Notes: generated from the letters alone by a model not told the origin. 64,000 bases of DNA from an uncultured delta proteobacterium (GCA_963823335.1 CAWGLD010000007.1:345409-409408), one strand, 5' to 3'. Counted from the first letter of the stretch, positions 23,198 through 60,549 are shown. Translations and numbers: made by a program.

Positions 23198-24673
23198 TCA
23201 CGCCTCCATATGCTCATTCTTCAACGTTTCCAATGCCCTTTCTCGTATCTGATCCAGGGATTGCTGAACATCGGCAGGCAATTTCAGCGGCCGGTGGTTT
23301 TCGAGAATGTCCATGGCCTTACTGACCGCTTTTTGGCCCCATGTTTTTTGCCCCTGGGCCATCCAGGGTTCAAGGGTTTCACGGTTGCAGAGCTGGGGTT
23401 GCCAATGTTCCTGTTTAAAATATTTCATGGTCTGTTCGGTTGAAATAAAGGCGCCCTGGGGACCCACCTGGCGGATCACATCCATGCCGATATGCTCCGG
23501 GTCGATGTCAAAACCGCGAATAACACGCCTCACGTAGCTGATGATCTCCGCATTCATTACAAGTGCCGCCGGAGACCCCACCAGGCCCTGTCCCAGATAT
23601 CCAATGTCATGAATCAGATTGGCACCGTCCAGTCCGGCCATGAGTAAAGAGATAGACCATTCCATGCCGGCCTGCTCATCAGGCACGTGTGCGTCGCTGA
23701 CCCCGGCTGTTCCCCACATGGGAATGCCGTAATAATGATACAGATCCGCGCAGGCCGACAGAGCCAGCCTGTATTCCGGACAACCATATACACATGCAGA
23801 TGTCTTCATATCCAGGGTGGACATACCGAACCCGGAAATGATCGGCGCACCTTTGGCCCTTAACTGATGAAGGACGATGCCACTCAAGGCTTCGGCATTT
23901 CCAACGGTAATGGCACCGGCCAGGGTCACCGGTGCGCTGGCCCCGGACATCATACCGGGTGTATAGTTTACCGGGACCGCATTGTCGGCACAAAAAAAGA
24001 GTTTTTTGATGGCCCCCGATGAGTGCATCAACGGCGTCAGTGGCTCAGCATAATGGATATGAATCGGCTTTTCCCTCAAGACATCTTTTCCGCCAACGAC
24101 AGCCGCAGCCATCTCATTGATGATGGCGATGTCTTTGGTTCCGGCCGCAGTAAAAAAAATGGGCTTTATGGCGTTTTCCAACTGGGTCTTGAAGGAATCG
24201 ATGTACATCAGGTTGGTGGGTGAGTCATATGGCAGGGCATAGGATCCCAAAAAATCGATCTCTTCGAGGGAATCGGCTATCCTGGCGGCATTTGCCACAT
24301 CCGCCAGTCTCGACTCTCTCAACACGCCGGACACCAGGTCATAGGTTTTGATCAAATCCGTCCCCATACCGAAATAGGATTTATTGCCTTCCAGGAGCAT
24401 GGCCTCCTGACCTAAGCGGTTATAGATGGTGATCCGTGAAGGCGCACTGCGGATGCAGTCTTCAACCAGCCAGTTGGGAATCTGGACGATGTTGTCTGGT
24501 TTTATCCGGCAACCGGCATGGGCCATCATATCCAGGGCCTCCGGATGCATCACCTTGACACCCACCGTTTCCAGGAGTTCCAGGGTGGCACAATGAATAT
24601 GTTCGATCTGATCCCGGGTCAGCACCCGATAGACCGGCAGACATTGTGATTTAAAGCCTGTGTTCATTACCAT
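23198..24673 (-). CDS. MttB-superfamily corrinoid methyltransferase, pyrrolysine-free (copy 1)
   Basis: IHCATLELLETVGV, GASAPVTLAG, GNAEALSG, DEQAGME, IRQVGPQG-F. No in-frame stop. Confidence 0.92.
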   Translation of the reverse strand: MVMNTGFKSQCLPVYRVLTRDQIEHIHCATLELLETVGVKVMHPEALDMMAHAGCRIKPDNIVQIPNWLVEDCIRSAPSRITIYNRLGQEAMLLEGNKSYFGMGTDLIKTYDLVSGVLRESRLADVANAARIADSLEEIDFLGSYALPYDSPTNLMYIDSFKTQLENAIKPIFFTAAGTKDIAIINEMAAAVVGGKDVLREKPIHIHYAEPLTPLMHSSGAIKKLFFCADNAVPVNYTPGMMSGASAPVTLAGAITVGNAEALSGIVLHQLRAKGAPIISGFGMSTLDMKTSACVYGCPEYRLALSACADLYHYYGIPMWGTAGVSDAHVPDEQAGMEWSISLLMAGLDGANLIHDIGYLGQGLVGSPAALVMNAEIISYVRRVIRGFDIDPEHIGMDVIRQVGPQGAFISTEQTMKYFKQEHWQPQLCNRETLEPWMAQGQKTWGQKAVSKAMDILENHRPLKLPADVQQSLDQIRERALETLKNEHMEA

Positions 24674-24748
24674 CTGTTTCTCCTCCCAACATCCGTTTCA
24701 CCCTCGACAGAGCGAAATGGGTGATCCTATGGCGATTTGCCATGTTGT

Positions 24749-26899
24749 TTATGCAAATTTAGGGTTCATCCGTTTGCATGCCCCGCACACATGTATTGTT
24801 TCCGGCGCAACCCCATATGGTTTGACCTGTTTTTCCATATACGAAATGTATCTGCCTGCTCCCAGTTCTTTGCCGCATCCATGACAGTATACCAGGATAT
24901 CCCTGCAGAGGGTGATACCGCAAAGCCTGAGAACACACTGACCGTTTTCATGGGTCATGGTCATGGCGCCGGTGGGGCAGCTGTTGACACAAGCACCGCA
25001 CAGGATGCACCTTCCGGCGGTTAACTCGAAATCGGTCGGCCCCGGAGCCTGGTGATCAAAATAACCGAGACCCAGTGCTTGAAAACCCAATTTTTCATGA
25101 CATGCGTCCACGCATCTGCCGCACTGAATGCACACATCGCACCTGAGGCACCGTAAAGCCTCTGTCCTGGCTGCCTGCGGTGCAAGCGTCAATTCCACCT
25201 GTTCGAAAGTCTTTTTCCTTTTCTCTATATCAAGCAGGGGCAACGATGGTCTGGTTAGCGTTGTTTTCTGAGATGCCGTTGTTTCAAGAAAAGCTGTCTG
25301 TGTCCTGCGGGCCGAAAGATATCGTGTTTTCAGCAAAGGCTGTCCCTGGAAGTATCGATGGACGTTCTCCGCCGCTAGTTTTCCAGCCGCAATGGCCTCG
25401 ATAATGGTGGCCGGACCTGTAACCAAATCGCCGCCTGCAAAAACACCTTTTGCTCCTGTCTGCCCCGTCAAAGGATCCGCGACGATGGTGTTGTGTTCCG
25501 TCCACGTCAGACCATTAAAGGCCGAAAGCCCTTCCCGGTCAGACCACTGCCCTATGGCATGAAGAACAGCATCGGTCTTGAGCTCATGCATGCTCCCCTG
25601 GATGGGGATGGGTCTTTTTCTGCCGTTTTCATCGGCCTCCCCGAGCCTGGCGTCCACACAACAAATACCGGACACCTTGCTCTGGGACCCCGATATCTCC
25701 ACAGGAATCTTCAAAAAGGACACCCGGACACCCTCCTGCTCCGCCTGGATGACATCCTCCTTCAGGGCCGGCATTTCACTCCGGGTCCGTCGGTACAGAA
25801 CCGTAACATCGCTGCTACCCAAACGCAGTGCCGTTCGGGCGGCATCCAGCGCGACATTACCTCCCCCCACAACTGCCACACGAGAACCAATGGAAGGTGC
25901 ATGCCCCAGACCGGCCTGATGTAAATACGTAATGGCATCCATGACCGGTGAAAAATCATTTTCACCTTTTATACCCATTCGCAGCCCTTTGTGGGCTCCC
26001 GTTGCAACATAGAAGGATTCAAACCCTTCCTGTCGCAACGCTTCAACCGTTATGTCCTTTCCCATACGCGTGTTGAAACGAAAGACAACACCCAGTTCTT
26101 GAATCAAAGAAATCTCTCTTTCGAGAACGGACAGGGGCAGCCGGTATCTTGGGATGCCAACACGCATCATCCCGCCGGCCCACGGCAGAGATTCGATGAC
26201 GGTTACACCATAGCCCTTGAGGGATAAATAGTAGGCCGCGCTGAGTCCGGATGGTCCGGCACCCACAATACAGACTTTGTGACCGTTGTCCTGTGCCCTG
26301 GCAGGGTTTTTAAAGCCATCACCCTCAAGGACAATTTTGGATGAAAAGGCTTTGAGGGCCTTGATGGCAACAGGTGTGTCGATGTTTTTCCTCAGGCAGG
26401 CTGTTTCACACGGATGTGTACAGGTCAGGCCGCACACCCATGGGAAAGGGTTGGCTTCCCGAATCAGCGCTATTGCTTCATGATCTCTACCCTGCCCGAT
26501 CAAGGTCACGTAGCTTGCCACATCGATACCGGCTGGGCAGGCACATTGACACGCTGCCGGTGACAAAATTTCGCAATCACCCGTCAGACAGACATGATCC
26601 CTCATATGGGTCTCAAAACAGACACCTTCTGAAAACAGTACCGCTGCAATGGTTTTGCCCAAGAATGCGACCATTTCATTTTGTGAGGATTCAAGATATT
26701 TCCCCAGAGATTCGACCCTGGACAGGTCTTGGGGAAGTGCTTTTCCAAGAGAGATTTTTTCCAGGCTGGCACACAGCGATAAAAGCGCTTTTATTAAATG
26801 AGGGGCGAGTTGTTTCTGTGATAAACAGGTGCAATCCGAGAGTAGTCGGAACACCGGGCATGAAGGACGTTTTCCTTTCTCAACACTTGTAACTTTCAT
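24749..26899 (-). CDS. FAD/NAD(P)-dependent Fe-S oxidoreductase (GltD/SudA/NfnB-like) with extra C-terminal ferredoxin
   Basis: CQCACP, CGLTCTHPCE, VGAGPSG, VGGGNVA, FAGGD, CIQCGRC, CILCGACVNSCP. Confidence 0.9.
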   Translation of the reverse strand: MKVTSVEKGKRPSCPVFRLLSDCTCLSQKQLAPHLIKALLSLCASLEKISLGKALPQDLSRVESLGKYLESSQNEMVAFLGKTIAAVLFSEGVCFETHMRDHVCLTGDCEILSPAACQCACPAGIDVASYVTLIGQGRDHEAIALIREANPFPWVCGLTCTHPCETACLRKNIDTPVAIKALKAFSSKIVLEGDGFKNPARAQDNGHKVCIVGAGPSGLSAAYYLSLKGYGVTVIESLPWAGGMMRVGIPRYRLPLSVLEREISLIQELGVVFRFNTRMGKDITVEALRQEGFESFYVATGAHKGLRMGIKGENDFSPVMDAITYLHQAGLGHAPSIGSRVAVVGGGNVALDAARTALRLGSSDVTVLYRRTRSEMPALKEDVIQAEQEGVRVSFLKIPVEISGSQSKVSGICCVDARLGEADENGRKRPIPIQGSMHELKTDAVLHAIGQWSDREGLSAFNGLTWTEHNTIVADPLTGQTGAKGVFAGGDLVTGPATIIEAIAAGKLAAENVHRYFQGQPLLKTRYLSARRTQTAFLETTASQKTTLTRPSLPLLDIEKRKKTFEQVELTLAPQAARTEALRCLRCDVCIQCGRCVDACHEKLGFQALGLGYFDHQAPGPTDFELTAGRCILCGACVNSCPTGAMTMTHENGQCVLRLCGITLCRDILVYCHGCGKELGAGRYISYMEKQVKPYGVAPETIHVCGACKRMNPKFA

Positions 26900-27014: not shown

Positions 27015-28085
27015 TTAGGCTCTATCCAGATTTTCCTCTATATTCTCGAAATCAAAGCCTTCAGGATACTTGGAATAATACTCATGGTACCATTCCCTTG
27101 CCTCATAAGCCTGGATCAGATGTTCCGCCGGAACACCGAATGGGAGATCTCAGCCGGGGGCAAATGTGAACCCCTGGGTACCGCCTGCCGCAAGACTGAT
27201 CAGGGCATCTTCTCTGGGTGACAGAAGTCCCAGGCCGAGGGCAAGGGTCAACTTCAGATTTCCACCAAACCCTTTACCGTATTTTCTTGCGATATCACGG
27301 ACAAAATTCAGGTTCATCTGTTCATCGATGGCAAATCCGTGGGTACCGACCTTGCAGACATCTTCAATGACCTTTGTGCAGTCACCACAGATGAAGAAGC
27401 TGGAAGTCTTGCCGGCATCATGTATGGCTGTTACGGCTTCCTGGCAGTTGGGTGTCACATATTCCTGAAAAGTCTCAGGTCGAATCTGCGACGCTACCGG
27501 ATCCACGATAGCGATGATATCACACCCCATTTGCGTATAAAACCGGGCAGACTCGGCACAGAGTTTACCGGCATAGGCTATAATGGCATGAGCGAAATCC
27601 TTCTTTTTTTTCAATGCCGTAAAAATACGCACACCGGCCAGATGAGAAGCCAGGGTCAGGGGTCCGGTCACCAGGCCGAGCATGGCGCAGTCCATTTCGT
27701 CGAGTTGCGGTTTGACCTTGGCTGCCGCCTGGAAAATGATCGGCCACCTTCCGGATGTTTTTGTAAACACCCCCAGCCCGAGTTCTTCGGGTGTCAACTT
27801 TTCACAGGGATGGGTCTTCACCGAAGGCACATTGTCTTCCCAGTATTCCAGTTCACAACCAATGGATTCCGCTTCCAGGGAGAGATCGAACAAGAGGGGG
27901 ATGCCATCCGCATGATAGGTTTTGGCGGCATGGACAACTCCCCGGGAAAGGATATCCGCATCCTTGAGATACCTGTCTGCTTTTTCATTGATAAGATAGG
28001 CACAGTTGACACCGGCATACGGAACCCAGGGGGCCTTGTCCGTTTCTTTCCCCCGTGTGGCGTCGATGAGCATCTGTTTGGCCAT
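27015..28085 (-). CDS. MtaA/CmuA (URO-D family) methylcobamide methyltransferase-like selenoprotein, 356 aa, UGA at codon 312
   Basis: URO-D family motifs (DLSLEAESIGC, GPLTLA, DPVAS, FICGD, GGNL). The ORF track stops at FTFAPG-TGA, but the frame continues DLPFGVPAEHL...RA-TAA, matching the family APGC(D/E)LP motif. A hairpin follows the UGA. Confidence 0.85.
27114..27149 (-). promoter_or_regulatory. Bacterial SECIS-like hairpin
   Basis: After the UGA: GATCTCCCATTCGG-TGTTCC-GGC-GGAACA-TCTGATC. The G-led loop is ~20 nt downstream; core at 27121-27135. Confidence 0.7.
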
Positions 28086-28246: not shown

Positions 28247-28996
28247 TTATTTTTCTCGTATAGATCTGAACTGGCAGTGTTTCATCGCGCATTGCAGGCA
28301 TTTACTGCCCACGGGCTTTTGCTGCGCCGAATCACTGTATATGACAAAACCGGATATGGATTTTGCCGGTTGCATGACAAACGCATCATTCAGGTGCACA
28401 CCGGCTGTGTCTTGTCCCAACAGATCGAATATCAGGGTCTGGCTTTCCAGGGCCACGCCATTCAGACCCGGTCCCATCCGACATCCGGAAAAAAGACCCA
28501 TCCGTTGTGCATGCATCTCAATCATGTCATTGCATATCAACCCCATGGCATCCAGCATGGCTGTGCCAACAGCATCCAGCAGCAGGGATTGGTATATGCT
28601 GTTGCGTTTTGCAAGATCCCGGCACATGGTCTCGAGGGCACTGCCCAGGCTGCCGACAAAAACAGCAACATACCGGGCATCACTCTCCCACCTGTCAGGA
28701 AGCATGTCAGCATATGCGCCCCTTGACAAAACGATTCCGTATACTTCTTCAATCATGTCCATCGGAATCGCTCGATAACAAATAACCGCCTGTATCATCC
28801 CGACAGTCTGCCGGATGCCCTGGCATACCTGTTGACGTGTCTCCGGGGTCATGGGATAGTCCGGCCCCCCGAAGTAGCGGGCAACAGCCTCTGGTGACGG
28901 CCTGACATCTTCCGGGTCGACGTCAATTCTCACCGTCGATGAATCACCTGCCCCGAATATATCGGCAGTTATGAGTTTTTTCGGTTTGACAGTCAT
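28247..28996 (-). CDS. Stand-alone MetH activation-domain-like protein
   Basis: LLLDAVG, RMGPG, GVHLNDAFVMQPAKSISG and C-terminal CLQCAMKHCQFR. Confidence 0.8.
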   Translation of the reverse strand: MTVKPKKLITADIFGAGDSSTVRIDVDPEDVRPSPEAVARYFGGPDYPMTPETRQQVCQGIRQTVGMIQAVICYRAIPMDMIEEVYGIVLSRGAYADMLPDRWESDARYVAVFVGSLGSALETMCRDLAKRNSIYQSLLLDAVGTAMLDAMGLICNDMIEMHAQRMGLFSGCRMGPGLNGVALESQTLIFDLLGQDTAGVHLNDAFVMQPAKSISGFVIYSDSAQQKPVGSKCLQCAMKHCQFRSIREK

Positions 28997-29113: not shown

Positions 29114-29140
29114 AAATAAAATCGCCCGGCGATTTTATTT
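29114..29140 (-). terminator. Hairpin directly after mtmB-like gene
   Basis: AAATAAAATCGCC-C-GGCGATTTTATTT, perfect inverted repeat with A/T tails. Confidence 0.55.
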
Positions 29141-30522
29141 TAGTAGGGAAACTCAATTCCCATGTCTGCGATTTCATCTTTGATTCTGCGGTACATATCG
29201 TAATGTTCCTGGGTCGGCACCGCTTTGGCGACATCGTAGCATTCATGGTACTCACTCCCGATGGGCGCATCTGCGGCATGGTCCTCGTATTTTGCCAGCA
29301 ATTTCTTGGCAATCGCATTGACTTCGGCCCGGGACAAGCCCTGGCACGCGACAGCATGGCCCACTTCCATGCCGATTCTGGCTTCCAGCGGTGTTGCACG
29401 ATTCTTGTATTTGTTGCGGGTCGAAGCCATCTCCCACAGGTGCCATCCAGTGACCGTCGAGACCATGGCGTGAACCGCGGTTTCCCGAAACAGCATCTCC
29501 GTCATGGGACCGGCATTGGCGAATCCATTGGAAGTATGCAGCAGTTTACTGTTTCTGGCCAGCGCCTGCCCTGCCATGGCGATGGCCCACAGCAACTCCC
29601 GGGTGGTGTTGGAACCGTAATTCAAATGAAATGGAAAGTGCTGATTGAAAACAGCACCGTGAATCACCAGACCGATAAGACTGTAGGCGACCGTGGTCAC
29701 CGCCGTTCCCTCTGAGCCGCCGCACCATCCACCGTAAATCGCCCCGGTCAGGTTCCCGGTATAGCAGCCATACTGGGCATAATGAAGGGAGCGATTGAGA
29801 AGTGTGTCGGCGGTCTTGAACTCGGTCAGGGACCCTACAAGCCGTGCATCTGATTTTTGAACGCCCCACTCCTGGTTTGATACGGCGATTTGACCGCTGT
29901 CGTGCTCCGCGGTCCCCACGGCAACCATAAATGTTCCCGGCCGTCCCAGCAGTCTTGCCGCCAGCTTCTGATTGGTGATGTGCTGGATACAGCCGCTGAT
30001 TTCAGAGGGACCCGAAGATTCGATCAGATGACCAAAGGTCTCTTCCAGGATCGGCCCGCAAATGCCGTCCAGAAGTGGTTCCTTGAGATAGGCCATGCAC
30101 ATGGACTGGTGGTACTGCTCGTCACAGGTGATGTCCGGGCTCATGATACAGAATGGGGGGGCCGTGTCTTCCACCTGCCGGTGTTTCCACAGGACAGCGT
30201 CTTTTCCGGCACCCACCCAATATTGATCATGGGCCATATACAGCGCTTCCCGAATCTCTTCATCGGTGACCTGGATCAGCCGGTGGGAATCGGTATTGTA
30301 ATACCCCACATCCCGGAACAGCTCCCAGGCAGCCTGCCAGATTCTGTCAGCCATGGCATCGTCTGTGGGGCACGGGTTTTCCGGGTCATATTTTATTTCA
30401 TATTTTTTGATAAGTTTTTTCAGGGTCGGTGTAAAGTGCTTGGGAAGAAAATCATCCTCCTCCATAAAAGGACCGGTCTGGGATCGTTCGAGAATCTCCC
30501 AGTGCCTGTAGGCTGTTGTCAT
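29140..30522 (-). CDS. MtmB-family (monomethylamine-type) corrinoid methyltransferase, pyrrolysine-free
   Basis: 460 aa; ERSQTGP, DDAMADRIW, GRPG, AGPMTEML, TPLEARI, ECYD. No amber codon. Confidence 0.88.
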   Translation of the reverse strand: MTTAYRHWEILERSQTGPFMEEDDFLPKHFTPTLKKLIKKYEIKYDPENPCPTDDAMADRIWQAAWELFRDVGYYNTDSHRLIQVTDEEIREALYMAHDQYWVGAGKDAVLWKHRQVEDTAPPFCIMSPDITCDEQYHQSMCMAYLKEPLLDGICGPILEETFGHLIESSGPSEISGCIQHITNQKLAARLLGRPGTFMVAVGTAEHDSGQIAVSNQEWGVQKSDARLVGSLTEFKTADTLLNRSLHYAQYGCYTGNLTGAIYGGWCGGSEGTAVTTVAYSLIGLVIHGAVFNQHFPFHLNYGSNTTRELLWAIAMAGQALARNSKLLHTSNGFANAGPMTEMLFRETAVHAMVSTVTGWHLWEMASTRNKYKNRATPLEARIGMEVGHAVACQGLSRAEVNAIAKKLLAKYEDHAADAPIGSEYHECYDVAKAVPTQEHYDMYRRIKDEIADMGIEFPY

Positions 30523-31433: not shown

Positions 31434-31639
31434 GTCAGGCCTCCTTGCTATCAGCTCTTTTAGGATAATAATATAGATTGTTATAATAACGCATTTCACC
31501 TTGCCCTGAAGCAAGATGTTGCCGTAAAAAATCAGAAATTCCGGAGAACTAGATGAACATCGAATCCCGTCACGGCGGGAAACGTTCAGCATCCAACGTC
31601 GAATACGACAGGTCTCCGCATTTTGTACGGCTTCCTAAG

Positions 31640-32459: not shown

Positions 32460-32487
32460 ACATCCCCGTTTCACGGTCTGAAAACCC

Positions 32488-32597
32488 TGTATATACATCT
32501 GGCACACTATAGCCCCACCCGTTTGGATTGTCGAGAGCAAATTCCGCTTGACAAGTCCGGGAACGATGGTCATAACTACTCTTTGATTGTATATACA
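32488..32597. promoter_or_regulatory. Two HutC-type boxes and hutU promoter
   Basis: TGTATATACA at 32488-32497 and 32588-32597; TTGACA(32548)-17bp-CATAAC promoter between them. Confidence 0.8.
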
Positions 32598-47322: not shown

Positions 47323-47414
47323 ACCTGTTCCTATTGTGATTTGTGATTTTAGTGTTTCACTCGAATCCTCGAATCCTCGAACCCTGGAATCCTTGATCAA
47401 CTTTTTTGCGTTGA

Positions 47415-51430: not shown

Positions 51431-52995
51431 GAATAACAGAAATTGAAATTTCAGGGAAAGCGCTGACCATCGAGGAGGTCAATGCGGTAGCCAACAACAG
51501 GGCAACGGTAAAGCCTCTCAGCCCGGAGACAAGATCCCGCATGAACGCCACATACCAGTGGTTGAATCAGGCTATTCAAAAGCGGGATACCGTGTTTTAC
51601 GGTATCAACACCGGCTTCGGGTCCCATGCCAACGAGACCATTCATCCGGACCAGGCCGGTATCCTGTCCAGAAATGTCATTCTTGCGGATGTAGCCGGTA
51701 TCGGCAAGCCTTTGCCCGAACCCATCGTCCGGGCCATGATGGTTATCCGGGCCAACACCATGGCCGGAGGACCATCCGGTATCCGGCCGGTGGTGGTTGA
51801 AACCCTTGTGAATATGCTCAACAAGGGGGTTATCCCTTTTGTCCCGGAAAAGGGCTCCCTGGGGGCCAGTGGTGATCTGGTGCCCCTGGCCACCATTGCG
51901 TCTGTTGCAACCTGCGATGCCGACGGTGGAGGATACAGCGGCAAGGCCTGGTACAGGGGTGAATTGATGAGTGGTGAAGAGGCCATGCGTCAGGCCGGCA
52001 TCCCCAGGCTCAAACTGGTGGCCAAGGAAGGAAATTCCATGATCAACGGCACAGCTTTCATGGCTGCCGTGGGTTGCCTGGCTGTTGAAAGATGCGAAAA
52101 ACTGATTCGCCATTCTGAAATCGCCGCAGCCATGAGTCTCGAAGCCCTGCTGGCAGTGTCGTCTGCCTTTCACCCGTCTCTGCACCAGGCTGCAAACCAG
52201 AAAGGGCAGATATCCGTGGCCAAAAACTTGAGAAGTCTGATCAAGGGCAGTCGGCTGGTGGATTCCACGGACAAGGTTCAGGATGCCTACTGTCTGCGGT
52301 GTATCCCTCAGGTATTGGGACCGGTCAAAGACACGGTCGCATTTGCCCGGGGCTACATTGAAAGGACATTGAACGCCGGAATCGACAACCCGCTGATCCT
52401 TGATTCCAATGAGGACGAGCCTTATGTCTGCATATCCGGCGGAAACTTTCACGGGGAAGGCCTGGCATTCATAATGGATTTTTTGTCCATCGTGATGTCC
52501 GAAGTGGCCAATATTTCCGATAGACGTTCATTCGCCCTGCTCACACCCGCCCTGAATTTCGGACTGCCCTCCATGTTGATACCTGCAAACGGTCTCAACA
52601 CCGGGTTAATGGTTGCGCAATATGCCGCCGCTGCGCTGGTATCGGACAACAAGACCCTTGCCCATCCGGACAGCGTCGATTCCATTCCCACCAGCGCAAA
52701 TCAGGAGGATCATGTGAGCATGGGGGCCAACGGGGCCCGTCATCTATGGGAGATCCTTGAAAATGTTACCAACGTTATCGCCATCGAATTTCTCTGTGCG
52801 GCCCAGGCTGTGGATCTACGGGAAGAAGGCCCCAAGCGTCTGGGAGAGGGGTCCCACATCGCCCATACTGTGATCCGACAACATGTGGACTTCTATGACA
52901 AGGACAAGGAGATGTCGCCGGATATCGCCCGGCTGGCGCAGTTGATCAAGGAAGAGGAGCTGCTGGAGAAAATTGATGGCAGCGAGAAATCCTAA
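51427..52995 (+). CDS. Aromatic amino-acid ammonia-lyase (HutH paralog) with altered specificity residues
   Basis: YGINTGFG, MIO triad ASG, QDAYCLRC, GGNFHG, NQEDHVSMG. The HAL SH motif is replaced by AD. Confidence 0.9.
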   Translation: MRITEIEISGKALTIEEVNAVANNRATVKPLSPETRSRMNATYQWLNQAIQKRDTVFYGINTGFGSHANETIHPDQAGILSRNVILADVAGIGKPLPEPIVRAMMVIRANTMAGGPSGIRPVVVETLVNMLNKGVIPFVPEKGSLGASGDLVPLATIASVATCDADGGGYSGKAWYRGELMSGEEAMRQAGIPRLKLVAKEGNSMINGTAFMAAVGCLAVERCEKLIRHSEIAAAMSLEALLAVSSAFHPSLHQAANQKGQISVAKNLRSLIKGSRLVDSTDKVQDAYCLRCIPQVLGPVKDTVAFARGYIERTLNAGIDNPLILDSNEDEPYVCISGGNFHGEGLAFIMDFLSIVMSEVANISDRRSFALLTPALNFGLPSMLIPANGLNTGLMVAQYAAAALVSDNKTLAHPDSVDSIPTSANQEDHVSMGANGARHLWEILENVTNVIAIEFLCAAQAVDLREEGPKRLGEGSHIAHTVIRQHVDFYDKDKEMSPDIARLAQLIKEEELLEKIDGSEKS

Positions 52996-53345
52996 ATCCT
53001 AATATCGAAATACGAAACAAACTCAAATTTCAAATGTTCAAATTATCAAGACATAGCAATTTGGCTCGGATGGCTTCACTTGTTTCGGTCATTGGGATTT
53101 ATATCATTTGGTATTGTTTAGGATTTCTTATTTCATGCTTCGAATTTAGTTGGGCTTCGATATCTGCAAAGTTCACAGACACTAACATGAACGTCCAACA
53201 TCGAACGTCCAACATCGAATTTTGAATGGGTAGAAAGGAAGAAATAGAAATTAGCTCATAGGGCTTGATCAGGTAACAGCTATCACCTATCAGCTATTAG
53301 TGTGTTTTCATTCGACGTTGGACTAGTTCGATGTTCGATGTTCAT
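52994..53345. repeat. Family C (52994-53148) and family B (53187-53345) inverted-repeat elements inside the operon
   Basis: Two stacked long hairpin-forming elements between the hutH-like and hutU-like genes. Confidence 0.75.
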
Positions 53346-53441
53346 CTTTTTAAAATTTTAAATACCTCCGAAGGCTTGGGGTTCAAGGATCCAAAATATT
53401 ATACCTTTAATGTGCATACAATAATGAAGGAGGCTCAGACT

Positions 53442-55175
53442 ATGAAACCGGAAATCTTATATGAAGTGAAAGCCCAGCGCGGGGATACCCTGCGCTGCAA
53501 AGGGTGGAAACAGGAAACCCTTTTGAGAATGCTGGAAAACAATATGGAAAACGCCGAAGCACCGGAATACCTCGTAATCTACGGGGGTATCGGCAAGTGT
53601 GCCAGAAACTGGGAATCCTACCACGCCATCGTGGATTCTCTCAAAAATATGGAAAATGACGAAACCCTGGTGGTACAGTCGGGCATGCCCGTTGCCATAT
53701 TCAAAACCCACAAGCTGGCACCCCGGGTGGTCATGGCAACCACGAACATCATGAAAGCAACCTGGCCCACATTCTACGATCTTCAGGATAAAAATCTCAC
53801 CATGTTTGCACAGTATACGGCAGCACCCTGGGAATATATCGGAACTCAGGGGGTTATCCAGGGCACGTTCGAGACCCTGGGCGCCATCGCAGACCAGCAC
53901 TTCAACAGTTCTTTGGTGGGGAAAATTCTCCTGACCGCCGGCCACGGCGGCATGGGGGCCAATCAGCCCCGGGCCATGAACATGCACGGCGGTGTGTGTA
54001 TCGACGTGGATGTCAACGAAGCCACCATCGACAAACGCATCAAGATCGGGTTCACCGATGTCAAGGCGGAAAGTCTGGATGCAGCCTTTGACATGGCCAA
54101 ACAGGCCGCCGCAGAGAAAAAGGCCCTTGCCATCGGTGTCGTTGGGAATGCCGCCACCCTGTTCTGGGAAGCCTATGACAAGGGCTTTAAACCCGACATC
54201 GTCACTGAAATGTGTCCCTGTCACGATCCCCTCTCATACATACCCGAAGGATATTCCCCGGCGGAAGCCGAAGACCTCAGGGTTGCAGACCGCGATGGCT
54301 ATCTTGAAAAAGCGCGTCAGTCCATGGTCAAACAGTTGAGAGCCATGAATGCTTATTCCAAAAAAGAGGGCATCCAGGTATTTGAATATGGCACCTCCAT
54401 TCGCAAGGAGTGCCGTGATGCCGGTATGCCTGAAGAAGAGGCCATGACCATACCGGGCTTTGTGGCGGAGTATATCCGGCCCCTTTTCTGTGAAGGCCGG
54501 GGCCCATTCCGCTGGACCTGCATCTCCGGAGATGAGGGCGATCTTAAACGCCTGGACGACCTGGTGCTGGACATGTTTCCGGAAGACAAACTGACCGTCA
54601 AATGGATCAACCTGGCCCGCAAAACACTGCCCATCGAGGCACTCCCTGCCCGGGTGTGCTACCTGGGTTTCGGGGAAAGAAAGGCCTTCGCCCTCAAAGT
54701 CAACGCGCTCATCAAAAAGGGTGAGGTGAAAGGCCCGGTTGCTTTTTCACGGGATAACCTGGACTCCGGCTCCATCGTGAACCCCACCTTTGAATCGGAG
54801 AAAATGAAGGACGGCGGGGACCTGATATCCGACTGGCCCATGCTCAATGCGCTTTTAAACTGCGCGGCCATGTGTGACCTCATCGCCATTCAGGCCAACT
54901 ACTCCATGGGGGAAGCTGTCCATACCGGTGTGACCATGATCGCCGATGGCAGCGATGAAGCTGATTTCCGTCTGGATGCATGCATGACCACCGACTCCGG
55001 TATCGGTGTGGTACGGCATGCCCAGGCAGGCTATGAAACAGCCCGGGAAACCGCAGAAGGGCGTGGAAAGCTGACAAGTGAAAGCATAAAAGTGCCTCTC
55101 TGGTGGAGTCCTGTGGCAACCTTCGGACCCGAAGGCGGCCGGCAGTTGCGACGAAGTGCGCATACGAAAGAATAA
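53442..55175 (+). CDS. Urocanate hydratase paralog, divergent subfamily
   Basis: LVIYGGIGKCARNW, YIGTQGVIQGT, GPFRW, LPARVC, GIGVVRHAQAGY, with several active-site motifs altered. Start moved to ATG 53442 after AAGGAGG. Confidence 0.9.
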   Translation: MKPEILYEVKAQRGDTLRCKGWKQETLLRMLENNMENAEAPEYLVIYGGIGKCARNWESYHAIVDSLKNMENDETLVVQSGMPVAIFKTHKLAPRVVMATTNIMKATWPTFYDLQDKNLTMFAQYTAAPWEYIGTQGVIQGTFETLGAIADQHFNSSLVGKILLTAGHGGMGANQPRAMNMHGGVCIDVDVNEATIDKRIKIGFTDVKAESLDAAFDMAKQAAAEKKALAIGVVGNAATLFWEAYDKGFKPDIVTEMCPCHDPLSYIPEGYSPAEAEDLRVADRDGYLEKARQSMVKQLRAMNAYSKKEGIQVFEYGTSIRKECRDAGMPEEEAMTIPGFVAEYIRPLFCEGRGPFRWTCISGDEGDLKRLDDLVLDMFPEDKLTVKWINLARKTLPIEALPARVCYLGFGERKAFALKVNALIKKGEVKGPVAFSRDNLDSGSIVNPTFESEKMKDGGDLISDWPMLNALLNCAAMCDLIAIQANYSMGEAVHTGVTMIADGSDEADFRLDACMTTDSGIGVVRHAQAGYETARETAEGRGKLTSESIKVPLWWSPVATFGPEGGRQLRRSAHTKE

Positions 55176-55177: not shown

Positions 55178-55338
55178 TTTAAATTCGAATAGCGAAATAC
55201 GAAACAAATCCAAATAGCGAATGCTCAAATGACCAAAACATAACTCTTGGACTTGAATGCAATACGATTTGTTTTGATCGTTCGATATTTGTGTCATTTG
55301 ATATTGTTTAGAATTTCGAATTTCGTGCTTCGGATTTG
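55178..55338. repeat. Family C inverted repeat
   Basis: Similar to 8355-8531 and 52994-53148. Confidence 0.75.
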
Positions 55339-55363
55339 AAACTTGAATGTAAGGAGATTCAAA

Positions 55364-56821
55364 ATGCCCCACAACCCACGTCTTCGATTCCTCACCGAAA
55401 ACGAAGAAGGTCTGATTTTTGAAAAGTGCCTCTATATTCTTTCGAATAAGGGTGTGAAAATAGACTATCCAAAGGCACTGGCCCTGCTGAAAAAAGCAGG
55501 TGCCGATGTCAATGAGAAGACCGAACAGGTTTGTTTCAGCCGCAATATGATCGAAACAGCCCTGAAAACAGTACCCCGTGAATTCACGGTCAAAGGCAGC
55601 CAAGCGAAACACGATTTTGTGGTCCCCCATCCCGAGGGATCCTTTTATACCAGCACCTGTGTTCAGACCATGCAGTATCACGACCCGGATATCAACGGGT
55701 TCGTGGCTGTCACCAGGCAAAACCTGGCCGAGTGGACGCAGCTCGCTGACGGGCTGGACAACATCCACAAAATCGCCATGCAGACACCCACAGATGCTCC
55801 CCATGAAACAGCCGATGTACATTCTCTGAGCATTCATCTGCAGAATACAACCAAACCCTTGATGGTGCTTGCATACTGCCCGGAAACCGTTCCGTTTCTA
55901 TTTGAACTGATGCTTGCCAGGGCTGGCAGCGTCGAAGCGTTGCAGGAAAGACCGATGCTCCTCACCTACCCTACCTCTTTGTCGCCGCTGCAATTCAAAG
56001 CCATGGATATGGAAACCATCCTTCAGTCATGCCGGTACGGCGTCCCCGTAGTGGCGAACTCTCTGGCCATATCAGGGGCCACAGCACCGGTAACCGTGGC
56101 CGGAACCGTTCTACTGGCCAGTGTCGAGATTCTGGCCATGCTGGTGATGACTCAGATTTTTCAGCCTGGATTGCCGGTAATCGGTTCTGTTTACACCACC
56201 AGTATGGACATGGCCACCGGCAACGCGCTGCTGGGAAATGCGGAGAGCATGCTGGGTCGGGCGGCATCGTCCCAGTTCATCAAGAGCAGATTCCACATCC
56301 CTGTTGAAACGTTTTCCTTCATGACCGATTCTTTTCTGTCGGATGGGCAGGCCATGGTTGAAAAATCCTTAATGCCGGCTCTTCTGGATCTGGCAGGGAG
56401 TGACATTCAATACGGCGCCGGAAGACTGGGCGGTGCAACGGCAGCCAGTCCGATTCAGTTGATCATCGATGATCAGTTGTTCACCATCATCCAGAAATGC
56501 AACAGCGGCGTGGTGGTAAACGATGACACCCTGGCGTTGCAGGATATTCTGGAAAATGCACCCCAGGGTAATTTTATTACCAGCGGGCACACTCTGCGAT
56601 ATTGCAGGGAAAACATCCGCCCCAGCCTGTTCGTCGCCGATAATTTGGACAACTGGCAATCAAAAGGTGCCAAAAGTCTTTACGAACGCGCCGTGGAAAG
56701 GTATAAGGAACTTCGATCGCAACTGTCCCCGCCATCTTTACCCGATGAGATTCTGCGGGATATGAGCAGCGTCGTAAAAAAAGCCGATGACCATCTGGTG
56801 GGAAAACTGGGATCCAAGTAA
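55364..56821 (+). CDS. MttB-superfamily corrinoid methyltransferase, pyrrolysine-free (copy 3, divergent)
   Basis: SPLQF, SGATAPVTVAG, MDMATG, TDSFLSDGQAMVEK, GNFITSGHTL. Start moved to ATG 55364. Confidence 0.9.
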   Translation: MPHNPRLRFLTENEEGLIFEKCLYILSNKGVKIDYPKALALLKKAGADVNEKTEQVCFSRNMIETALKTVPREFTVKGSQAKHDFVVPHPEGSFYTSTCVQTMQYHDPDINGFVAVTRQNLAEWTQLADGLDNIHKIAMQTPTDAPHETADVHSLSIHLQNTTKPLMVLAYCPETVPFLFELMLARAGSVEALQERPMLLTYPTSLSPLQFKAMDMETILQSCRYGVPVVANSLAISGATAPVTVAGTVLLASVEILAMLVMTQIFQPGLPVIGSVYTTSMDMATGNALLGNAESMLGRAASSQFIKSRFHIPVETFSFMTDSFLSDGQAMVEKSLMPALLDLAGSDIQYGAGRLGGATAASPIQLIIDDQLFTIIQKCNSGVVVNDDTLALQDILENAPQGNFITSGHTLRYCRENIRPSLFVADNLDNWQSKGAKSLYERAVERYKELRSQLSPPSLPDEILRDMSSVVKKADDHLVGKLGSK

Positions 56822-56825
56822 GCTT

Positions 56826-57626
56826 ATGATACATTCAATCTATCGATTTGTTAAACGGATGCACCTTTTTGATATATCGGCATACCTGTTTCTTATGATC
56901 GGTGGGGGCATCCTCCTTTTAAAAGGCGCTGAAGACCAGGGATATTACTGGCAGTGGTTTCGGATTCCCAAATATCTATATGAAATCGATGACGGCCGAT
57001 TTATTGCCGGGCCCATTTTAAAGGGGCTCAAGATAACCCTGAACCTCACCTGGATCAGTCTTATTCTGACCTACATCATCGGGCTGGTCACCGCCCTGAT
57101 GCGGCTTTCCAACTCGCTGCTGGCAAGAGGTATTGCCCGGGTCTATCTTGAGATTACACGCAATACGCCCTTACTGGTGCAGATATTTTTCATGTACTTC
57201 GTTGTGGCGCCGATTCTGGACATCGACCGGTTTGTTGCGGGTGTGCTGGCACTGAGCCTTTTTGAAGGGTCCTATGCGTCGGAAATTTACCGCTCCGGCA
57301 TCGTCGCCGTCAACAAGGGACAATGGGAAGCCTCCTACACCCTGGGTCTGAGCACCTACCAGAACTATCGCTATATCGTTCTGCCCCAGGCCATACGGCG
57401 GATACTTCCGCCCTTGACCAGCCAGGCCGTTTCCCTGATCAAGGACTCATCCCTGGTCAGCGTTATCGCCATATACGAGATGACCATGCACGCCAATGAA
57501 ATCGCCTCGGAAACTTTTCTGGTTTTTGAGATATTCTTTACCATCGCCGCGATTTATCTGGCACTGACCATCACCTTGTCACAGATCGTGGCTTATTTTG
57601 AAAAGCGATACAGGGTAATATCTTGA
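56826..57626 (+). CDS. Polar amino-acid ABC transporter permease
   Basis: RNTPLLVQ, GQWEAS, PQAIRRILPPL, LIKDSSL. Confidence 0.95.
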   Translation: MIHSIYRFVKRMHLFDISAYLFLMIGGGILLLKGAEDQGYYWQWFRIPKYLYEIDDGRFIAGPILKGLKITLNLTWISLILTYIIGLVTALMRLSNSLLARGIARVYLEITRNTPLLVQIFFMYFVVAPILDIDRFVAGVLALSLFEGSYASEIYRSGIVAVNKGQWEASYTLGLSTYQNYRYIVLPQAIRRILPPLTSQAVSLIKDSSLVSVIAIYEMTMHANEIASETFLVFEIFFTIAAIYLALTITLSQIVAYFEKRYRVIS

Positions 57627-57685
57627 CACCCCAAGCATTTAGGCTGATAGGCTGTTAGACTGTAGGCTGTAGGAGAGGAACACAC

Positions 57686-58438
57686 ATGAGTGCCAAAGAG
57701 TTTGGTGATTACATTGTCCGCGTTGACGGTATTGGCAAGACCTTTTCCAACGGAGTCGTGGCGCTAAAGGATTTTTCCACGAACATTCGCCGCAGAGAAG
57801 TGGTGGTTCTCATAGGGCCGTCAGGATCCGGAAAATCGACTTTTTTACGCTGTCTGAACGGACTGGAGGAGATCGATTCCGGCACCATCACCATCGACGG
57901 CATTCCCCTTGACGACAACAAGAAGAACCGTCTGGAAATCCGCAAGGAAGTGGGTATGGTGTTCCAGCATTTCAATTTATTCCCACACCTGACGGTTTTT
58001 AGAAACATTACTCTGGCGCAGATGCTCGTGCGCAAAAAATCCAAGAATGACGCCCAGGATGAAGCCATGCAGCTGCTGAAAAAAGTGGGCATTTCAGAAA
58101 AAGCGGACGCATTCCCGAGCCAACTCAGCGGCGGACAGCAGCAGCGCGTGGCCATCGCCAGAGCGCTGGCAATGAAACCCAAGGTGATGATGTTCGATGA
58201 AGCCACCAGTGCTCTTGACCCGGAAATGATCGGTGAGGTATTGGAAGTGATGAAGGCGCTTGCCATAGAGGGCATGACCATGGTCGTCGTTACCCACGAA
58301 ATGGGATTTGCCCGGGAGGTGAGCGACTGGGTTATTTTTATGGAGGACGGTATGAAGGTGGAAGAAGGAACGGCAGAACACTTTTTTACCGATCCCAAAA
58401 AAGATCGTACCAAGCTGTTTCTGAGTCAGATACTATAA
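57686..58438 (+). CDS. Polar amino-acid ABC transporter ATP-binding protein (GlnQ-like)
   Basis: [28 protein letters not shown]. Confidence 0.95.
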
Positions 58439-58473
58439 AATTTGGATCATCTTCAAAAGAGATGATCCAAATT
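58439..58473. repeat. Perfect 14-bp inverted repeat related to the MITE ends at 8532/8854
   Basis: AATTTGGATCATCT-7nt-AGATGATCCAAATT. Confidence 0.7.
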
Positions 58474-58699
58474 GAGGGTTCACGGGGCGGAGGGTGATAC
58501 AAGGGTCCGAGGGTAGCTGACAGCAATAAGCGGACAGCAGCATCACAGCTTCCTATCATCCTAGCGTCCCAGCATATCAGGGGTCAAGGGTTGCTGAAAG
58601 CAATCAGCAATAAGCAACTAACAGCCTATAGTCTATACCCCTAAAAGGCTAAACAACTGTTGTTTCAATTCACCAACCTTAGAAAAGGAGACCAAGACA

Positions 58700-59548
58700 A
58701 TGAAGAAAATGATCGTGGGAAAAAAAAGAGTCTTAACGATGGTCACGGCAGTCATGCTGGCACTGATGTTCTGCATTGCAGGGACGGTTGTCGCCGATGA
58801 CATCAACCAGGAACTTGCCAAATCCAGCATCATCGACAAGGTCATGCGCAAAGGCACACTGCGGGTGGGTCTCTCTTCATTTGTGCCCTGGGCAATGCAG
58901 GATAAAAAAGGTGAGTGGGTTGGTTTTGAGATCGATGTCGCCAAACAACTGGCCGAGGATATGGGTGTCAAAATTGAATTTGTGCCCACCAAGTGGGAAG
59001 GCCTCATCCCCTCGCTCCTGACTGGTAAGTTCGACATGATTATCGCCGGCATGACCGGAACACCCCAGCGGGCCCTGAAAATCAACTTCACCAATCCTTA
59101 TGACTATTCGGGTATGAATGTCGTGGTCCACAAAGATTTTTCAGCAGGTGTCAGCGACTATATGGATCTGGACAAGAAGGGCAACACCATTGTAGCACGT
59201 CTAGGCACCACCGGCGCCGCATTAGCCAAGGAAACATATAAAAATGCCACGGTCCGCCTGTTTCCCGACGAAGGCCCCATGGTGCAGGAGCTTCTGAACG
59301 GCAAAGCCGCCGCATTTTTGGGTTCGGCACCTCAGCCGGCCCAGCTGGCTGCCAAGTATCCAGATACCCTGGTGTTCCTGGACAAGAACCTGGTCCAGCA
59401 GCCCATCTGTATGGGTGTCCCCAAAGGCGACCCGGATACCCTGGCCTATCTGAACAACTGGATCACGACGGTCCGCAACAATGGCTTCATCCAAAAGAAA
59501 GTCGATTACTGGTGGAAGAGCCTCGAATGGGAGTCCTTACTGCAGTAA
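58700..59548 (+). CDS. Polar amino-acid ABC transporter substrate-binding protein (family 3)
   Basis: Signal peptide, GFEIDVAKQLA, WEGLIPSLLTGKFD, FTNPY. Confidence 0.95.
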   Translation: MKKMIVGKKRVLTMVTAVMLALMFCIAGTVVADDINQELAKSSIIDKVMRKGTLRVGLSSFVPWAMQDKKGEWVGFEIDVAKQLAEDMGVKIEFVPTKWEGLIPSLLTGKFDMIIAGMTGTPQRALKINFTNPYDYSGMNVVVHKDFSAGVSDYMDLDKKGNTIVARLGTTGAALAKETYKNATVRLFPDEGPMVQELLNGKAAAFLGSAPQPAQLAAKYPDTLVFLDKNLVQQPICMGVPKGDPDTLAYLNNWITTVRNNGFIQKKVDYWWKSLEWESLLQ

Positions 59549-59664
59549 CGTCGCTCATAATGCCAGTCATTTGGTTGTCACAGAAACGAGTCAACATCGA
59601 ATCCCGCAGCTGCGGGATTCGATGTTGAGCGTTCATTATTGAAATATCGCAGAGTGAAGCTGGT

Positions 59665-60549
59665 ATGTACAAAAGAAATCTCCGCTTGAAAACATCTGAT
59701 GTCATTGCCGGCGCCATTCTCTTGGCCGTCGCCGTGGCCATCTATTACCGGGTGGAAATCGGGCTCAATTACAAATGGAACTGGGATAAAATCCCCCAGT
59801 TCCTGTACCGCTTTGACGATGAGAGTGGCAAGTGGGTATCCAACGTGTTGATGTGGGGCCTTTTCAACACCATCCGCCTCAGTATCTTCGGCACCATCCT
59901 GGCCATCGTCCTGGGTACGATCATGGGTATCTGCCGGTCTTCAAAGGTGGTGTTCCTCAGGCTCGTCAGCGGCACCTATGTTGAAACCATGCGCAACCTC
60001 CCGCCCCTTGTAATCATCTTTATCGTCTATTTTTTCATCGGAAACCATCTGTTGCCCTACAGCGGCATCGGGGCCGCTCTGGAAGGCCGGGACAACTTCC
60101 TGGTAACCCTCGTGACTTTCTGCTTTTCTCGGCCGGAGCACCTCACCACGTTCCTGTCCGCGCTCTTCACCCTGGCGATCTTCGAAGGCGCCTATATCAC
60201 CGAAATTGTCAGGGCCGGGATCCAGTCCATTCACAGGGGCCAGTGGGAAGCCGCCCACTCCCTGGGAATGACAAAATACCAGATGATGCGTTACATCATT
60301 CTGCCTCAGGCCTTTCAGCGAATATTACCACCAATGGCCGGGCAGTTTGTTTCCCTGATCAAGGATTCCTCCATCGTTTCGGTCATTTCCATACCCGAAC
60401 TCTCCTTCAGGGCCAATGAGCTCATGACCGGCACGCTCCTCACCATGGAGATCTGGATTACGGTAACGATACTATACCTGATGCTGACGCTGCCCTGCTC
60501 GATCGCTATCCAGAAACTGGAGGATCGTGTCTCCAGGGGATTGCGCTAA
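59665..60549 (+). CDS. Polar amino-acid ABC transporter permease
   Basis: RNLPPLV, AYITEIVRAGIQS, GQWEAA, LIKDSS. Confidence 0.95.
   Translation: MYKRNLRLKTSDVIAGAILLAVAVAIYYRVEIGLNYKWNWDKIPQFLYRFDDESGKWVSNVLMWGLFNTIRLSIFGTILAIVLGTIMGICRSSKVVFLRLVSGTYVETMRNLPPLVIIFIVYFFIGNHLLPYSGIGAALEGRDNFLVTLVTFCFSRPEHLTTFLSALFTLAIFEGAYITEIVRAGIQSIHRGQWEAAHSLGMTKYQMMRYIILPQAFQRILPPMAGQFVSLIKDSSIVSVISIPELSFRANELMTGTLLTMEIWITVTILYLMLTLPCSIAIQKLEDRVSRGLR

Follow-up and report, generated by a model that had tools for sequence, protein, structure and literature searches.

The gene island described here, at positions 23198 to 60549 of a 64,000-nucleotide stretch of DNA from an uncultured delta proteobacterium, joins genes of histidine utilisation (hut) with genes for corrinoid methyltransferases and for molybdenum or tungsten (Mo/W) enzymes. 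Its closest described relatives are the quaternary-amine systems built around MttB proteins that lack pyrrolysine (Pyl), the canonical Hut pathway and the routes of ergothioneine breakdown. In the following, the window means the whole 64,000-nucleotide stretch (G000:C7:345409-409408). Its source genome, G000, has 4.37 Mb in 11 contigs and is 93.9% complete and 4.6% contaminated. The proteins of the window were scanned with Pfam (33 reading frames) and NCBIfam (27 reading frames).

The known MttB quaternary-amine systems (MtgB/MtgC/MtgA, MtpB, MtcB, MtyB, MthB with MtqC/MtqA, RamQ) remove one methyl group and then stop. Like them, the island encodes Pyl-free MttB proteins, a corrinoid protein, a RACo-type activase and a second methyltransferase; unlike them, it has Trp, Trp and Glu in the place of Arg312, and its genes lie inside hut operons together with Mo enzymes. 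Among Pyl-free homologues of MtmB, MtqB of Methanococcoides acts on tetramethylammonium and choline, which was reported in 2026 as the first function of any Pyl-free MtmB (PMC13044021). By description, MtqB and the MtmB of the island are both Pyl-free MtmB-family proteins whose genes adjoin that of their corrinoid protein. The island protein, however, belongs to a bacterial clade that is conserved at 71-97% identity over Desulfobacterales and Spirochaetota and is linked to a Mo enzyme with bis-pyranopterin guanine dinucleotide (bisPGD), a ferredoxin and an amino-acid-type importer.

With the canonical Hut pathway and its FtcD branch the island has all five enzyme families in common, and HutH1, HutI and FtcD pass the NCBIfam equivalog cut-offs. 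It differs from this pathway in that there is no stand-alone operon, HutU1 is long, HutH2 has Asp at the N-tau position and HutU2 has 24 changed columns. Aerobic ergothioneine catabolism via ergothionase and thiourocanate hydratase is a five-step route. It releases trimethylamine, whereas the island would send the methyl groups to a corrinoid. For this comparison we matched the solved chains 6s7j, 7ned and 8q9u; HutU2 of the island and HutU3 of another locus in G000 have motifs as in 7ned and 8q9u and score best on the thio-type models of NCBIfam, below the curated cut-offs. On the other hand, G000 has no trimethylamine lyase without the 4-methylideneimidazole-5-one (MIO) group, and the downstream enzymes are HutI and FtcD, not desulfhydrase and hydantoinase. 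The anaerobic routes for hercynine, ergothioneine and N-pi-methyl-hercynine, as described in two preprints (10.1101/2025.08.13.670108, 10.64898/2026.04.22.720169; Shewanella), also use MIO-less lyases that release trimethylamine.

Finally, the metallopterin ergothioneine synthase (MES), a Mo/W-pterin enzyme, forms the C2-S bond of ergothioneine and also exchanges it, swapping sulfur between ergothioneine and trimethylhistidine; its bis-pterin module of about 700 amino acids (aa) is described as related to acetylene hydratase, with Cys as the ligand and a 4Fe-4S cluster near the N-terminus (PMC9516567). Compared with that description, Mo1 of the island has bis-pterin domains, a Cys ligand, an N-terminal FeS motif and a match to acetylene hydratase of 210.7 bits. 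Unlike MES, Mo1 and Mo2 carry three molybdopterin domains only, without a fused C-terminal pyridoxal phosphate cysteine desulfurase, and they stand in a catabolic context with a ferredoxin partner. By analogy, MES provides a precedent for a sulfur-handling role of Mo1 and Mo2.

An earlier reading of the window by a model (the original prediction) knew of no described system with such a composition. In the literature that we searched, we found no matching cluster description, no paper joining MttB with hercynine and, among the papers listed, none joining ergothioneine or hercynine with corrinoid terms.

Layout and conservation of the island

The island consists of two divergently transcribed units, modules 1 and 2, in each of which hut genes are intermingled with those of methyltransferases and a Mo enzyme around a single regulator (Table 1). 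Pfam and NCBIfam recovered every gene type of the original prediction in its place, and the interleaving within operons that it described holds. Along the plus strand of module 1, from HutU1 to RACo, the gaps between reading frames are 1, 86, -4 and -4 nucleotides, the ferredoxin/Mo1 and Mo1/RACo pairs each overlapping by 4 nucleotides, and HutI and HutH2 in module 2 overlap by 4 nucleotides as well. Absent from that prediction were the GltD-like FeS flavoprotein, the MetH-activation-like protein, the BBE/FAD protein and the 321-aa orphan.

We searched 401 genomes of the order Desulfobacterales and then inspected the contigs of the genomes that bear HutH2. Orthologues of HutH2 occur in 14 of the 401 genomes and those of MttB3 in 12, all within the 14; the two genomes without MttB3 are 71% and 75% complete. 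MttB3 stands directly after HutH2 and/or HutU2 in 12 of the 12 contigs long enough to extend beyond the hut genes (G000, G007, G004, G006, G001, G012, G002, G014, G446, G714, G578 and G483), and these contigs come from several Desulfobacterales families. Contigs that end too early (G013 C413, G002 C175, G630 and G642) were left out of this count. Two genera of the family keep the regulator followed by FTCD_C-FtcD-HutI-HutH2-(HutU2)-MttB3 and, in part, the ATP-binding cassette (ABC) importer, with MttB2 on the other side of the regulator, and the same module 2 string is found in other families (G446, G714, G578, G483). Genus g3 and G001 also preserve module 1 as a block, which in G001 has a contig separate from that of module 2; in G483 the two modules stand side by side once more, with their order changed. 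The GntR/FCD regulator is conserved in G001, G012, G006, G013, G446 and G483, and Mo2 adjoins MttB2 in G007, G004, G006, G013 and G578. The joint conservation of hut and methyltransferase genes, whose absence the original prediction had named as telling against it, is thus borne out by the neighbourhood search, which finds them adjacent in several families.

A scan for MtmB, with one genome per species, gave 80 loci at 71-97% identity in Desulfobacterales, Desulfobulbaceae, Spirochaetota, one Gemmatimonadota metagenome-assembled genome (MAG) and one Myxococcota MAG. We counted the neighbours at the 39 loci whose flanks reach 6 kb or more in either direction. A corrinoid protein lies upstream of MtmB in all 39; an importer ATPase is found in 27, Mo1-like and MttB1-like proteins in 25 each, a ferredoxin in 23, an MtaA-like protein and a HutC-like regulator in 22 each, a MetH-activation-like protein in 19 and RACo in 14. 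Any hut enzyme is present in 9 (HutH1 in 8, HutU1 in 5). Orthologues of the importer adjoin MtmB in 24-27 of the 39 loci, Spirochaetota included. The conserved core is therefore MtmB, the corrinoid protein, the Mo enzyme and the amino-acid-type importer, with hut genes added only in some lineages. HutH1 orthologues (75-79% identity) lie within the MtmB/Mo1 loci L077, L124, L125 and L141. Since the hut-bearing MtmB loci (family f1, L077, L106, L124, L125, L141) are each arranged differently, retention of the partnership seems to be at work rather than mere inheritance. In a metagenome scan with HutH2, 76 of the 80 loci kept are generic lyases (39-48% identity) and only L178, L179, L181 and L210 (56-58%) were useful.

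The same association is seen across G000 itself. Its totals are 3 histidine ammonia-lyase (HAL) family, 3 urocanase, 2 HutI, 1 FtcD, 1 cyclodeaminase and 18 MttB-family loci, and the MtmB of the island is the only member of its family found. Each of the three HAL/urocanase loci has an MttB-family gene within 10 kb, and there is no stand-alone hut operon. The third of them (C8:2100-18805, L171) comprises HutU3, a binding protein, ABC genes, an M20 peptidase, HAL3, HutI3, an amidase, a Pyl-free MttB4, a decayed MttB and an FCD regulator. For MttB4, no close orthologue was found in 40 relatives (best 52% identity). With 18 MttB-family loci in 4.37 Mb, about 0.15 would be expected per 37 kb and 3 are observed; conservation in other genomes is a stronger argument than this chance estimate.

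The island is a real and conserved gene system whose parts come from known families, while several of them lack defining features of characterised members. There is good support for a functional coupling of its hut-type enzymes with the corrinoid methyltransferases and the Mo enzymes, which we consider likely.

Table 1. Genes of the island, with positions in the window, strand, module and the features on which the assignments rest (scores in bits)
Feature	Position	Strand	Module	Family and evidence
MttB1	23198..24673	-	1	Pyl-free MttB family; Pfam MTTB 326.6; Trp at the MtgB Arg312 position, Val at the pyrrolysine position
GltD-like NAD(P)H FeS flavoprotein	24749..26899	-	1	716 aa; Pyr_redox_2, Fer4_20, Fer4; NF009410 501, cut-off 516
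MtaA-like	27150..28085	-	1	URO-D family methyltransferase; URO-D 132; MtaA/CmuA family 121, cut-off 235
MetH activation-domain-like	28247..28996	-	1	PF02965 36.5
MtmB	29140..30522	-	1	Pyl-free MtmB family; PF05369 292, full length, no TAG
Corrinoid protein	30798..31592	-	1	B12-binding, B12-binding_2; MtgC/pyl_corrinoid about 180
GntR/UTRA regulator (HutC-like)	31713..32573	-	1	divergent promoter region; TIGR02018 120.5, cut-off 220
HutU1	32655..34688	+	1	long (eukaryote-type) urocanate hydratase; TIGR01228 434.9, cut-off 375; best solved match 6uek 566
HutH1	34690..36255	+	1	histidine ammonia-lyase; TIGR01225 667, cut-off 539; aligned to 1gkm
Ferredoxin	36342..36833	+	1	4Fe-4S dicluster, partner of Mo1; Fer4_11 and others
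Mo1	36830..38890	+	1	686 aa, cytoplasmic Mo/W-bisPGD enzyme; N-terminal 4Fe-4S motif, Cys ligand
RACo	38887..40896	+	1	RACo/RamA-type reductive activase of corrinoid proteins; RACo_C_ter 309, Raco_middle 169, RACo_linker 83
321-aa orphan	40993..41958	-	2	accessory; no known family
BBE flavoprotein	42014..43441	-	2	FAD_binding_4/BBE, accessory; Pfam; present in G007, not found in G004
Mo2	43520..45637	-	2	705 aa, second Mo/W-bisPGD enzyme, same type (Pfam, NCBIfam)
MttB2	45853..47400	-	2	Pyl-free; MTTB 299.9; 55% identical to MttB1; Trp at the Arg312 position
GntR/FCD regulator	47415..48050	-	2	divergent promoter region; Pfam
FTCD_C	48485..49048	+	2	formimino-tetrahydrofolate cyclodeaminase; 170
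FtcD	49139..50044	+	2	glutamate formimidoyltransferase; TIGR02024 398, cut-off 221
HutI	50171..51430	+	2	imidazolonepropionase; TIGR01224 373, cut-off 298
HutH2	51427..52995	+	2	MIO ammonia-lyase; TIGR01225 546.8, just over cut-off 539; aligned to 1gkm/7tqr
HutU2	53331..55175	+	2	urocanase-superfamily hydratase, remodelled active site; TIGR01228 629.9, cut-off 375; true start probably near 53442
MttB3	55343..56821	+	2	divergent Pyl-free MttB; MTTB 242.7; 24% identical to MttB1; Glu at the Arg312 position
ABC importer	56787..60549	+	2	polar-amino-acid type; permease, ATPase, binding protein 58700-59548, permease

Promoter and terminator scans stayed at background (22 terminator-like sites against 22.0 expected; 29 against 20.0, standard deviation 3.7) and did not help to define operons. 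Contigs from four runs of an estuary metatranscriptome cover 28-30 of the 30 bins of window positions 41000-60900 at low depth, which denotes presence in RNA libraries only, and neither transcripts nor their strand or induction. A 54-nucleotide element at 30711-30764 and 48199-48252 (98% complementary) was tried as a common operator and rejected: it is a dispersed genome-wide repeat with about 200 matches and gives no evidence of co-regulation. Short dispersed intergenic repeat families are also found at 45684-45849, 52987-53228 and 55174-55259, and the RNA-library contigs pile up on these repeats. Intergenic arrays with a period of 8 nucleotides (TTGAAYCC-like) lie at 23038-23126, 28206-28256, 30742-30800, 47353-47411 and 49057-49107, with about 38 similar places in the genome.

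The island is bounded by a Y1 (IS200-like) transposase fused to a DnaA C-terminal helix-turn-helix (HTH) domain (60616-61590, minus strand), flanked by 38-nucleotide inverted repeats at 60602-60639 and 61608-61645. The same two-domain Y1/DnaA-HTH protein adjoins a HutU2-like cluster of G328 (L058:1821-2798). That cluster (L058, G328:C1:50000-69999, positions 3059-14900) combines HutU2-like, HutI2-like, FtcD and cyclodeaminase genes with a TRAP transporter, a 2-hydroxyacid dehydrogenase, a LarA-like protein and aconitase X; lacking both a lyase and an MttB, it may be another entry route to the same hydratase. Immediately upstream of the island (19708-22944), a 531-aa multihaem cytochrome c and a 551-aa radical SAM protein of the B12-binding type are encoded.

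Active sites and accessory proteins

Next, we compared the enzymes with characterised relatives. HutH1 keeps the Ser-His specificity pair and all catalytic residues, has Ser-Ser-Gly as its MIO triplet, and has the features of a histidine ammonia-lyase. HutH2 also keeps the MIO triplet, together with Tyr53, Asn195, Gln277, Tyr280, Arg283, Phe329 and Glu414. In HutH2, however, His83 (P. putida numbering), a ligand of the imidazole N-tau, is replaced by Asp; an (A/S)-Asp pair is found in 11 of 11 orthologues, and a 7-residue insertion follows the MIO motif. More distant HutH2 relatives (56-58% identity) have Cys at the His83 position. The equivalents of His83 and Glu414 are assigned to the imidazole N-tau and N-pi in a preprint (10.1101/2025.08.13.670108). 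All three HAL-family genes of G000 carry an ASG or SSG triplet, and because all three keep the MIO none of these lyases is of the MIO-less ergothionase type. This fits a route distinct from the trimethylamine-releasing one of ergothionase, as originally proposed.

Among the hydratases, HutU1 has the canonical motifs GRDH, FRET and HNGGG intact. On the other hand, the HutU2 clade (11 members, several families) has changed 24 columns that are invariant in canonical and long urocanases. They include QTSAH, GRDHLD, NRET and HHGGG, where HutU2 reads EMCPCH, SRDNLD, TFES and Q--AN, so that it lacks the urocanase motifs. HutU2 has AFSRD, LNCxxMxDL and W(E/Q)YIG in common with the solved chains 7ned and 8q9u, and the lost Arg of NRET in common with 7ned. 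Its score with the S-methyl-thiourocanate hydratase model (NF058531) is 648.7 bits versus 629.9 with hutU. HutU3, with the thiourocanate-hydratase-like motifs YMSSARAARNW and AFTRDHLD, reaches 778 versus 715 bits (749 with the other thio model, NF058530), whereas a canonical HutU from G203 has 696 versus 903 bits. The altered motifs of HutU2 suggest thio-substituted urocanates as possible substrates. The altered active sites expected for the second hut set are thus seen in HutH2 and HutU2, while HutI looks canonical. Of the HutC/HutU/HutH set first called canonical, HutH1 deserves the name; HutU1 is the long form, and the HutC-like regulator, being below the HutC cut-off, has only its GntR plus UTRA architecture in common with HutC.

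MttB1-3 give full-length PF06253 matches over about 465 residues and are open under translation table 11 without in-frame TAG. In alignments with MtgB (9yce/2qne) and MttB (7xcl), their Val, Cys and Met align to the Pyl of 7xcl. In-frame TGA and TAG codons of MttB3 orthologues were considered as selenocysteine or Pyl and rejected, as they are genuine stop codons read through at the C-terminus. In PMC13080624, Arg312 (MtgB numbering) is described as the residue that binds the carboxylate of the substrate and as conserved throughout the characterised members, the acidic-betaine methyltransferases. None of MttB1-3 aligns an Arg there, and the Glu of MttB3 is present in 6 of 6 orthologues. Since many other MttB homologues in G000, as in its relatives, carry exactly one in-frame TAG (in G000 for example C1:1189294-1190700, C1:641234-642637, C2:84127-85536 and C7:56470-57873), the organism probably also uses pyrrolysine.

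MtmB carries Val at the position that aligns with pyrrolysine in M. barkeri MtmB (1l2q), and its full-length family match and the adjacent gene of the cognate corrinoid protein (true start probably near 31445) agree with a Pyl-free member of the family. RACo matches the linker, middle and C-terminal ASKHA domains of RACo/RamA. The MtaA-like protein falls below the family cut-off, and its Zn-ligand His is replaced (FICG versus HICG in MtaA 4ay7); it is a probable methyl-corrinoid:acceptor enzyme, perhaps with tetrahydrofolate (THF) as the acceptor.

The solved matches of Mo1 are about equally near: FdhF 212, acetylene hydratase 210.7 and thiosulfate reductase 188.6 bits. Its Cys aligns to the ligand of formate dehydrogenase, the next residue is Tyr, not His, and TIGR01591 gives 316 bits versus a cut-off of 666; judged by these features, Mo1 is not a formate dehydrogenase. 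At least 120 relatives with at least 61% identity, among the matches listed, have generic names only, and a protein Atlas search gave the same picture. The GltD-like flavoprotein, present in G001 and in L078, L080, L124 and L125, is a likely electron feeder. The 321-aa orphan has no Pfam or NCBIfam match and no tblastn match in G007 or G004.

The binding protein of the importer has 9e2b as its closest solved chain (274.5 bits, no functional name), followed by AncCDT-1 (200.8 bits) and 3k4u (193.8 bits); a literature search on PDB code 9E2B found nothing relevant. Aligned with AncCDT-1, it has Ser in the place of the Asp of the ...TDSP... stretch, an Asp that presumably binds the alpha-ammonium group in amino-acid binders.

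Substrates and alternative readings

We tentatively favour, with a confidence just short of even, the reading that the island serves to break down methylated histidine derivatives taken up by the cell, with the betaines ergothioneine and hercynine as the likeliest substrates. These two are preferred because HutU2 and HutU3 have thio-type features, the Mo enzymes have a precedent in MES, the lyases carry MIO and the methyltransferases are several in number. A catabolic rather than biosynthetic role is suggested by the fact that no EgtD-family gene was found in G000 (93.9% complete). The original prediction had a similar pathway in mind, in which methyl groups, and perhaps sulfur, are stripped from histidine derivatives; co-conservation, altered sites and MIO lyases are now observed, while the substrate is what we infer from them.

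In such a pathway, the ABC importer would take up the compound, and the Pyl-free MttB1-3 and MtmB would move its N-methyl groups to the corrinoid protein, which RACo, perhaps with the MetH-activation-like protein, would keep active. The MtaA-like enzyme would hand the methyl groups on, probably to THF. The acetylene-hydratase-like Mo1 and Mo2, fed by ferredoxin and the GltD-like flavoprotein, may remove or handle the ring sulfur. A MIO lyase would then deaminate the demethylated (thio)histidine, HutH1 acting on histidine and HutH2 on a ring-modified form, and HutU1 or HutU2 would hydrate the product. HutI would open the ring, and FtcD and the cyclodeaminase would yield glutamate, ammonia and methenyl-THF, so that a single THF pool would receive the carbon of both the methyl and the formimino groups.

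A number of observations weigh against this reading. We know of no precedent for Pyl-free enzymes that remove all three N-alpha methyl groups, nor of corrinoid demethylation of tertiary or secondary amines without pyrrolysine, yet MIO lyases need a primary amine. The chains 7ned and 8q9u, which we take to be thiourocanate and S-methyl-thiourocanate hydratases, have structure titles that say only "urocanate hydratase", and HutU2 lies below both thiourocanate cut-offs (606.4 versus 930 bits for NF058530, 648.7 versus 880 for NF058531), as does HutU3. HAL3 is a canonical Ser-His lyase paired with the thio-like HutU3, so the His-to-Asp change is unneeded to explain thio substrates. Given the canonical look of FtcD and HutI, the sulfur of a 2-thio ring would have to be lost before ring opening, a step that is only assumed, and the likeness of Mo1 and Mo2 to MES is one of described features, not of direct sequence comparison. 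In 30 of the 39 MtmB loci, including all Spirochaetota, the MtmB-corrinoid-Mo1-ABC core has no hut gene in the fetched flanks, the rest of those genomes not having been searched. HutU2-like genes in G203, G328 and L179 (G203 and L179 ending at contig edges) and HutH2-like genes with Cys for Asp (L178, L179, L210, G642) have no MttB neighbour. Finally, the supporting genomes come mostly from one order, so that part of the synteny is shared descent.

The difficulty with the alpha-amino methyl groups disappears if the same logic is applied to ring-methylated histidines with a free alpha-amino group, such as N-tau- or N-pi-methylhistidine, ovothiols or imidazolium compounds of the 1,3-dimethylhistidinium type. 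Here a protonated or quaternary N-methylimidazolium would be the donor for the Pyl-free MtmB and MttB, and HutH2 and HutU2 would take the still-modified ring. No Pyl-free demethylation of tertiary or secondary amines is needed, and the MIO of all lyases, with its need for a primary amine, as well as the polar-amino-acid type of the importer fit well. Only the N-tau ligand of HutH2 is changed, and the M20 peptidase and amidase of the third hut locus could free methylhistidine from peptides. Furthermore, a preprint on Shewanella describes a lyase specific for N-pi-methyl-histidine betaine and models an Asp that binds N-tau of N-pi-methylurocanate in a reductase (10.64898/2026.04.22.720169). However, HutH2 keeps the N-pi ligand Glu, which speaks against an N-pi-methyl substrate; a redox Mo enzyme, found in 25 of the 39 MtmB loci, is unexplained for plain methylhistidines; and the derived motifs of HutU2 and HutU3 resemble thio-type hydratases. 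As to 1,3-dimethylhistidine, which we presume to occur in marine animals, we found papers on norzooanemonin and none on its breakdown. We regard this main alternative to ergothioneine and hercynine as unlikely.

Potentially, there could be no shared substrate at all, with the methyltransferases acting on unrelated quaternary amines, the hut genes on ordinary histidine, and both together only through the one-carbon pool of THF or through shared descent. MttB neighbours easily arise in a genome with 18 MttB-family loci, and many relatives have more; HutI, FtcD, HutH1 and HutU1 look canonical; one order supplies most of the evidence; and most MtmB loci have no hut gene nearby. This explanation has to account, however, for the adjacency in 12 of 12 contigs, for the MttB3 genomes being all among the HutH2 genomes and for a partnership that is kept while gene order is shuffled between families. 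It is also at odds with the overlapping frames in mixed operons, the lack of a stand-alone hut operon, the lineage-wide active-site changes in HutH2 and HutU2 and the MttBs without the betaine-carboxylate Arg, and we consider it quite improbable.

It is more improbable still that the core serves a non-histidine methylated amino acid (lysine, arginine, or a sulfonium or oxide form needing reduction) and gained hut genes only in some Desulfobacterales: the core does occur without nearby hut genes in Desulfobulbaceae, Spirochaetota and the Gemmatimonadota and Myxococcota MAGs, and the binding protein is nearest to a cationic-amino-acid-binding clade (that of AncCDT-1 and 3k4u, whose ligands we presume), but a HutH1-type lyase lies inside the ferredoxin-Mo1-RACo operon in at least five differently arranged lineages, a HutC-like regulator is found in 22 of the 39 loci, and hut absence near MtmB is weak evidence where the remainder of a genome was not searched for hut genes.

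Returning to ergothioneine and hercynine, the fullest form of our proposal is that marine-sediment Desulfobacterales mineralise these compounds without trimethylamine, the Pyl-free MttB and MtmB stripping all N-methyl groups, a Mo/W enzyme reductively removing the sulfur, and new HutH and HutU subfamilies taking the thio intermediates. In this complete form it is doubtful. It is also directly testable: the MtmB core is present in a cultured strain, Desulfocicer vacuolatum DSM 3385 (L083).

Little is known about what becomes of ergothioneine, hercynine, ovothiols and methylhistidines, all of them widespread, in anoxic sediments. If the proposal is true, sulfate reducers would channel the methyl groups of such compounds to their THF pool by a corrinoid route, which would alter the methylamine supply expected for methanogens. 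It would also provide first functions for the large bacterial clade of Pyl-free MtmB, for MttBs without the betaine-binding Arg, for a large unnamed Mo/W-pterin clade and for new HutH and HutU subfamilies.

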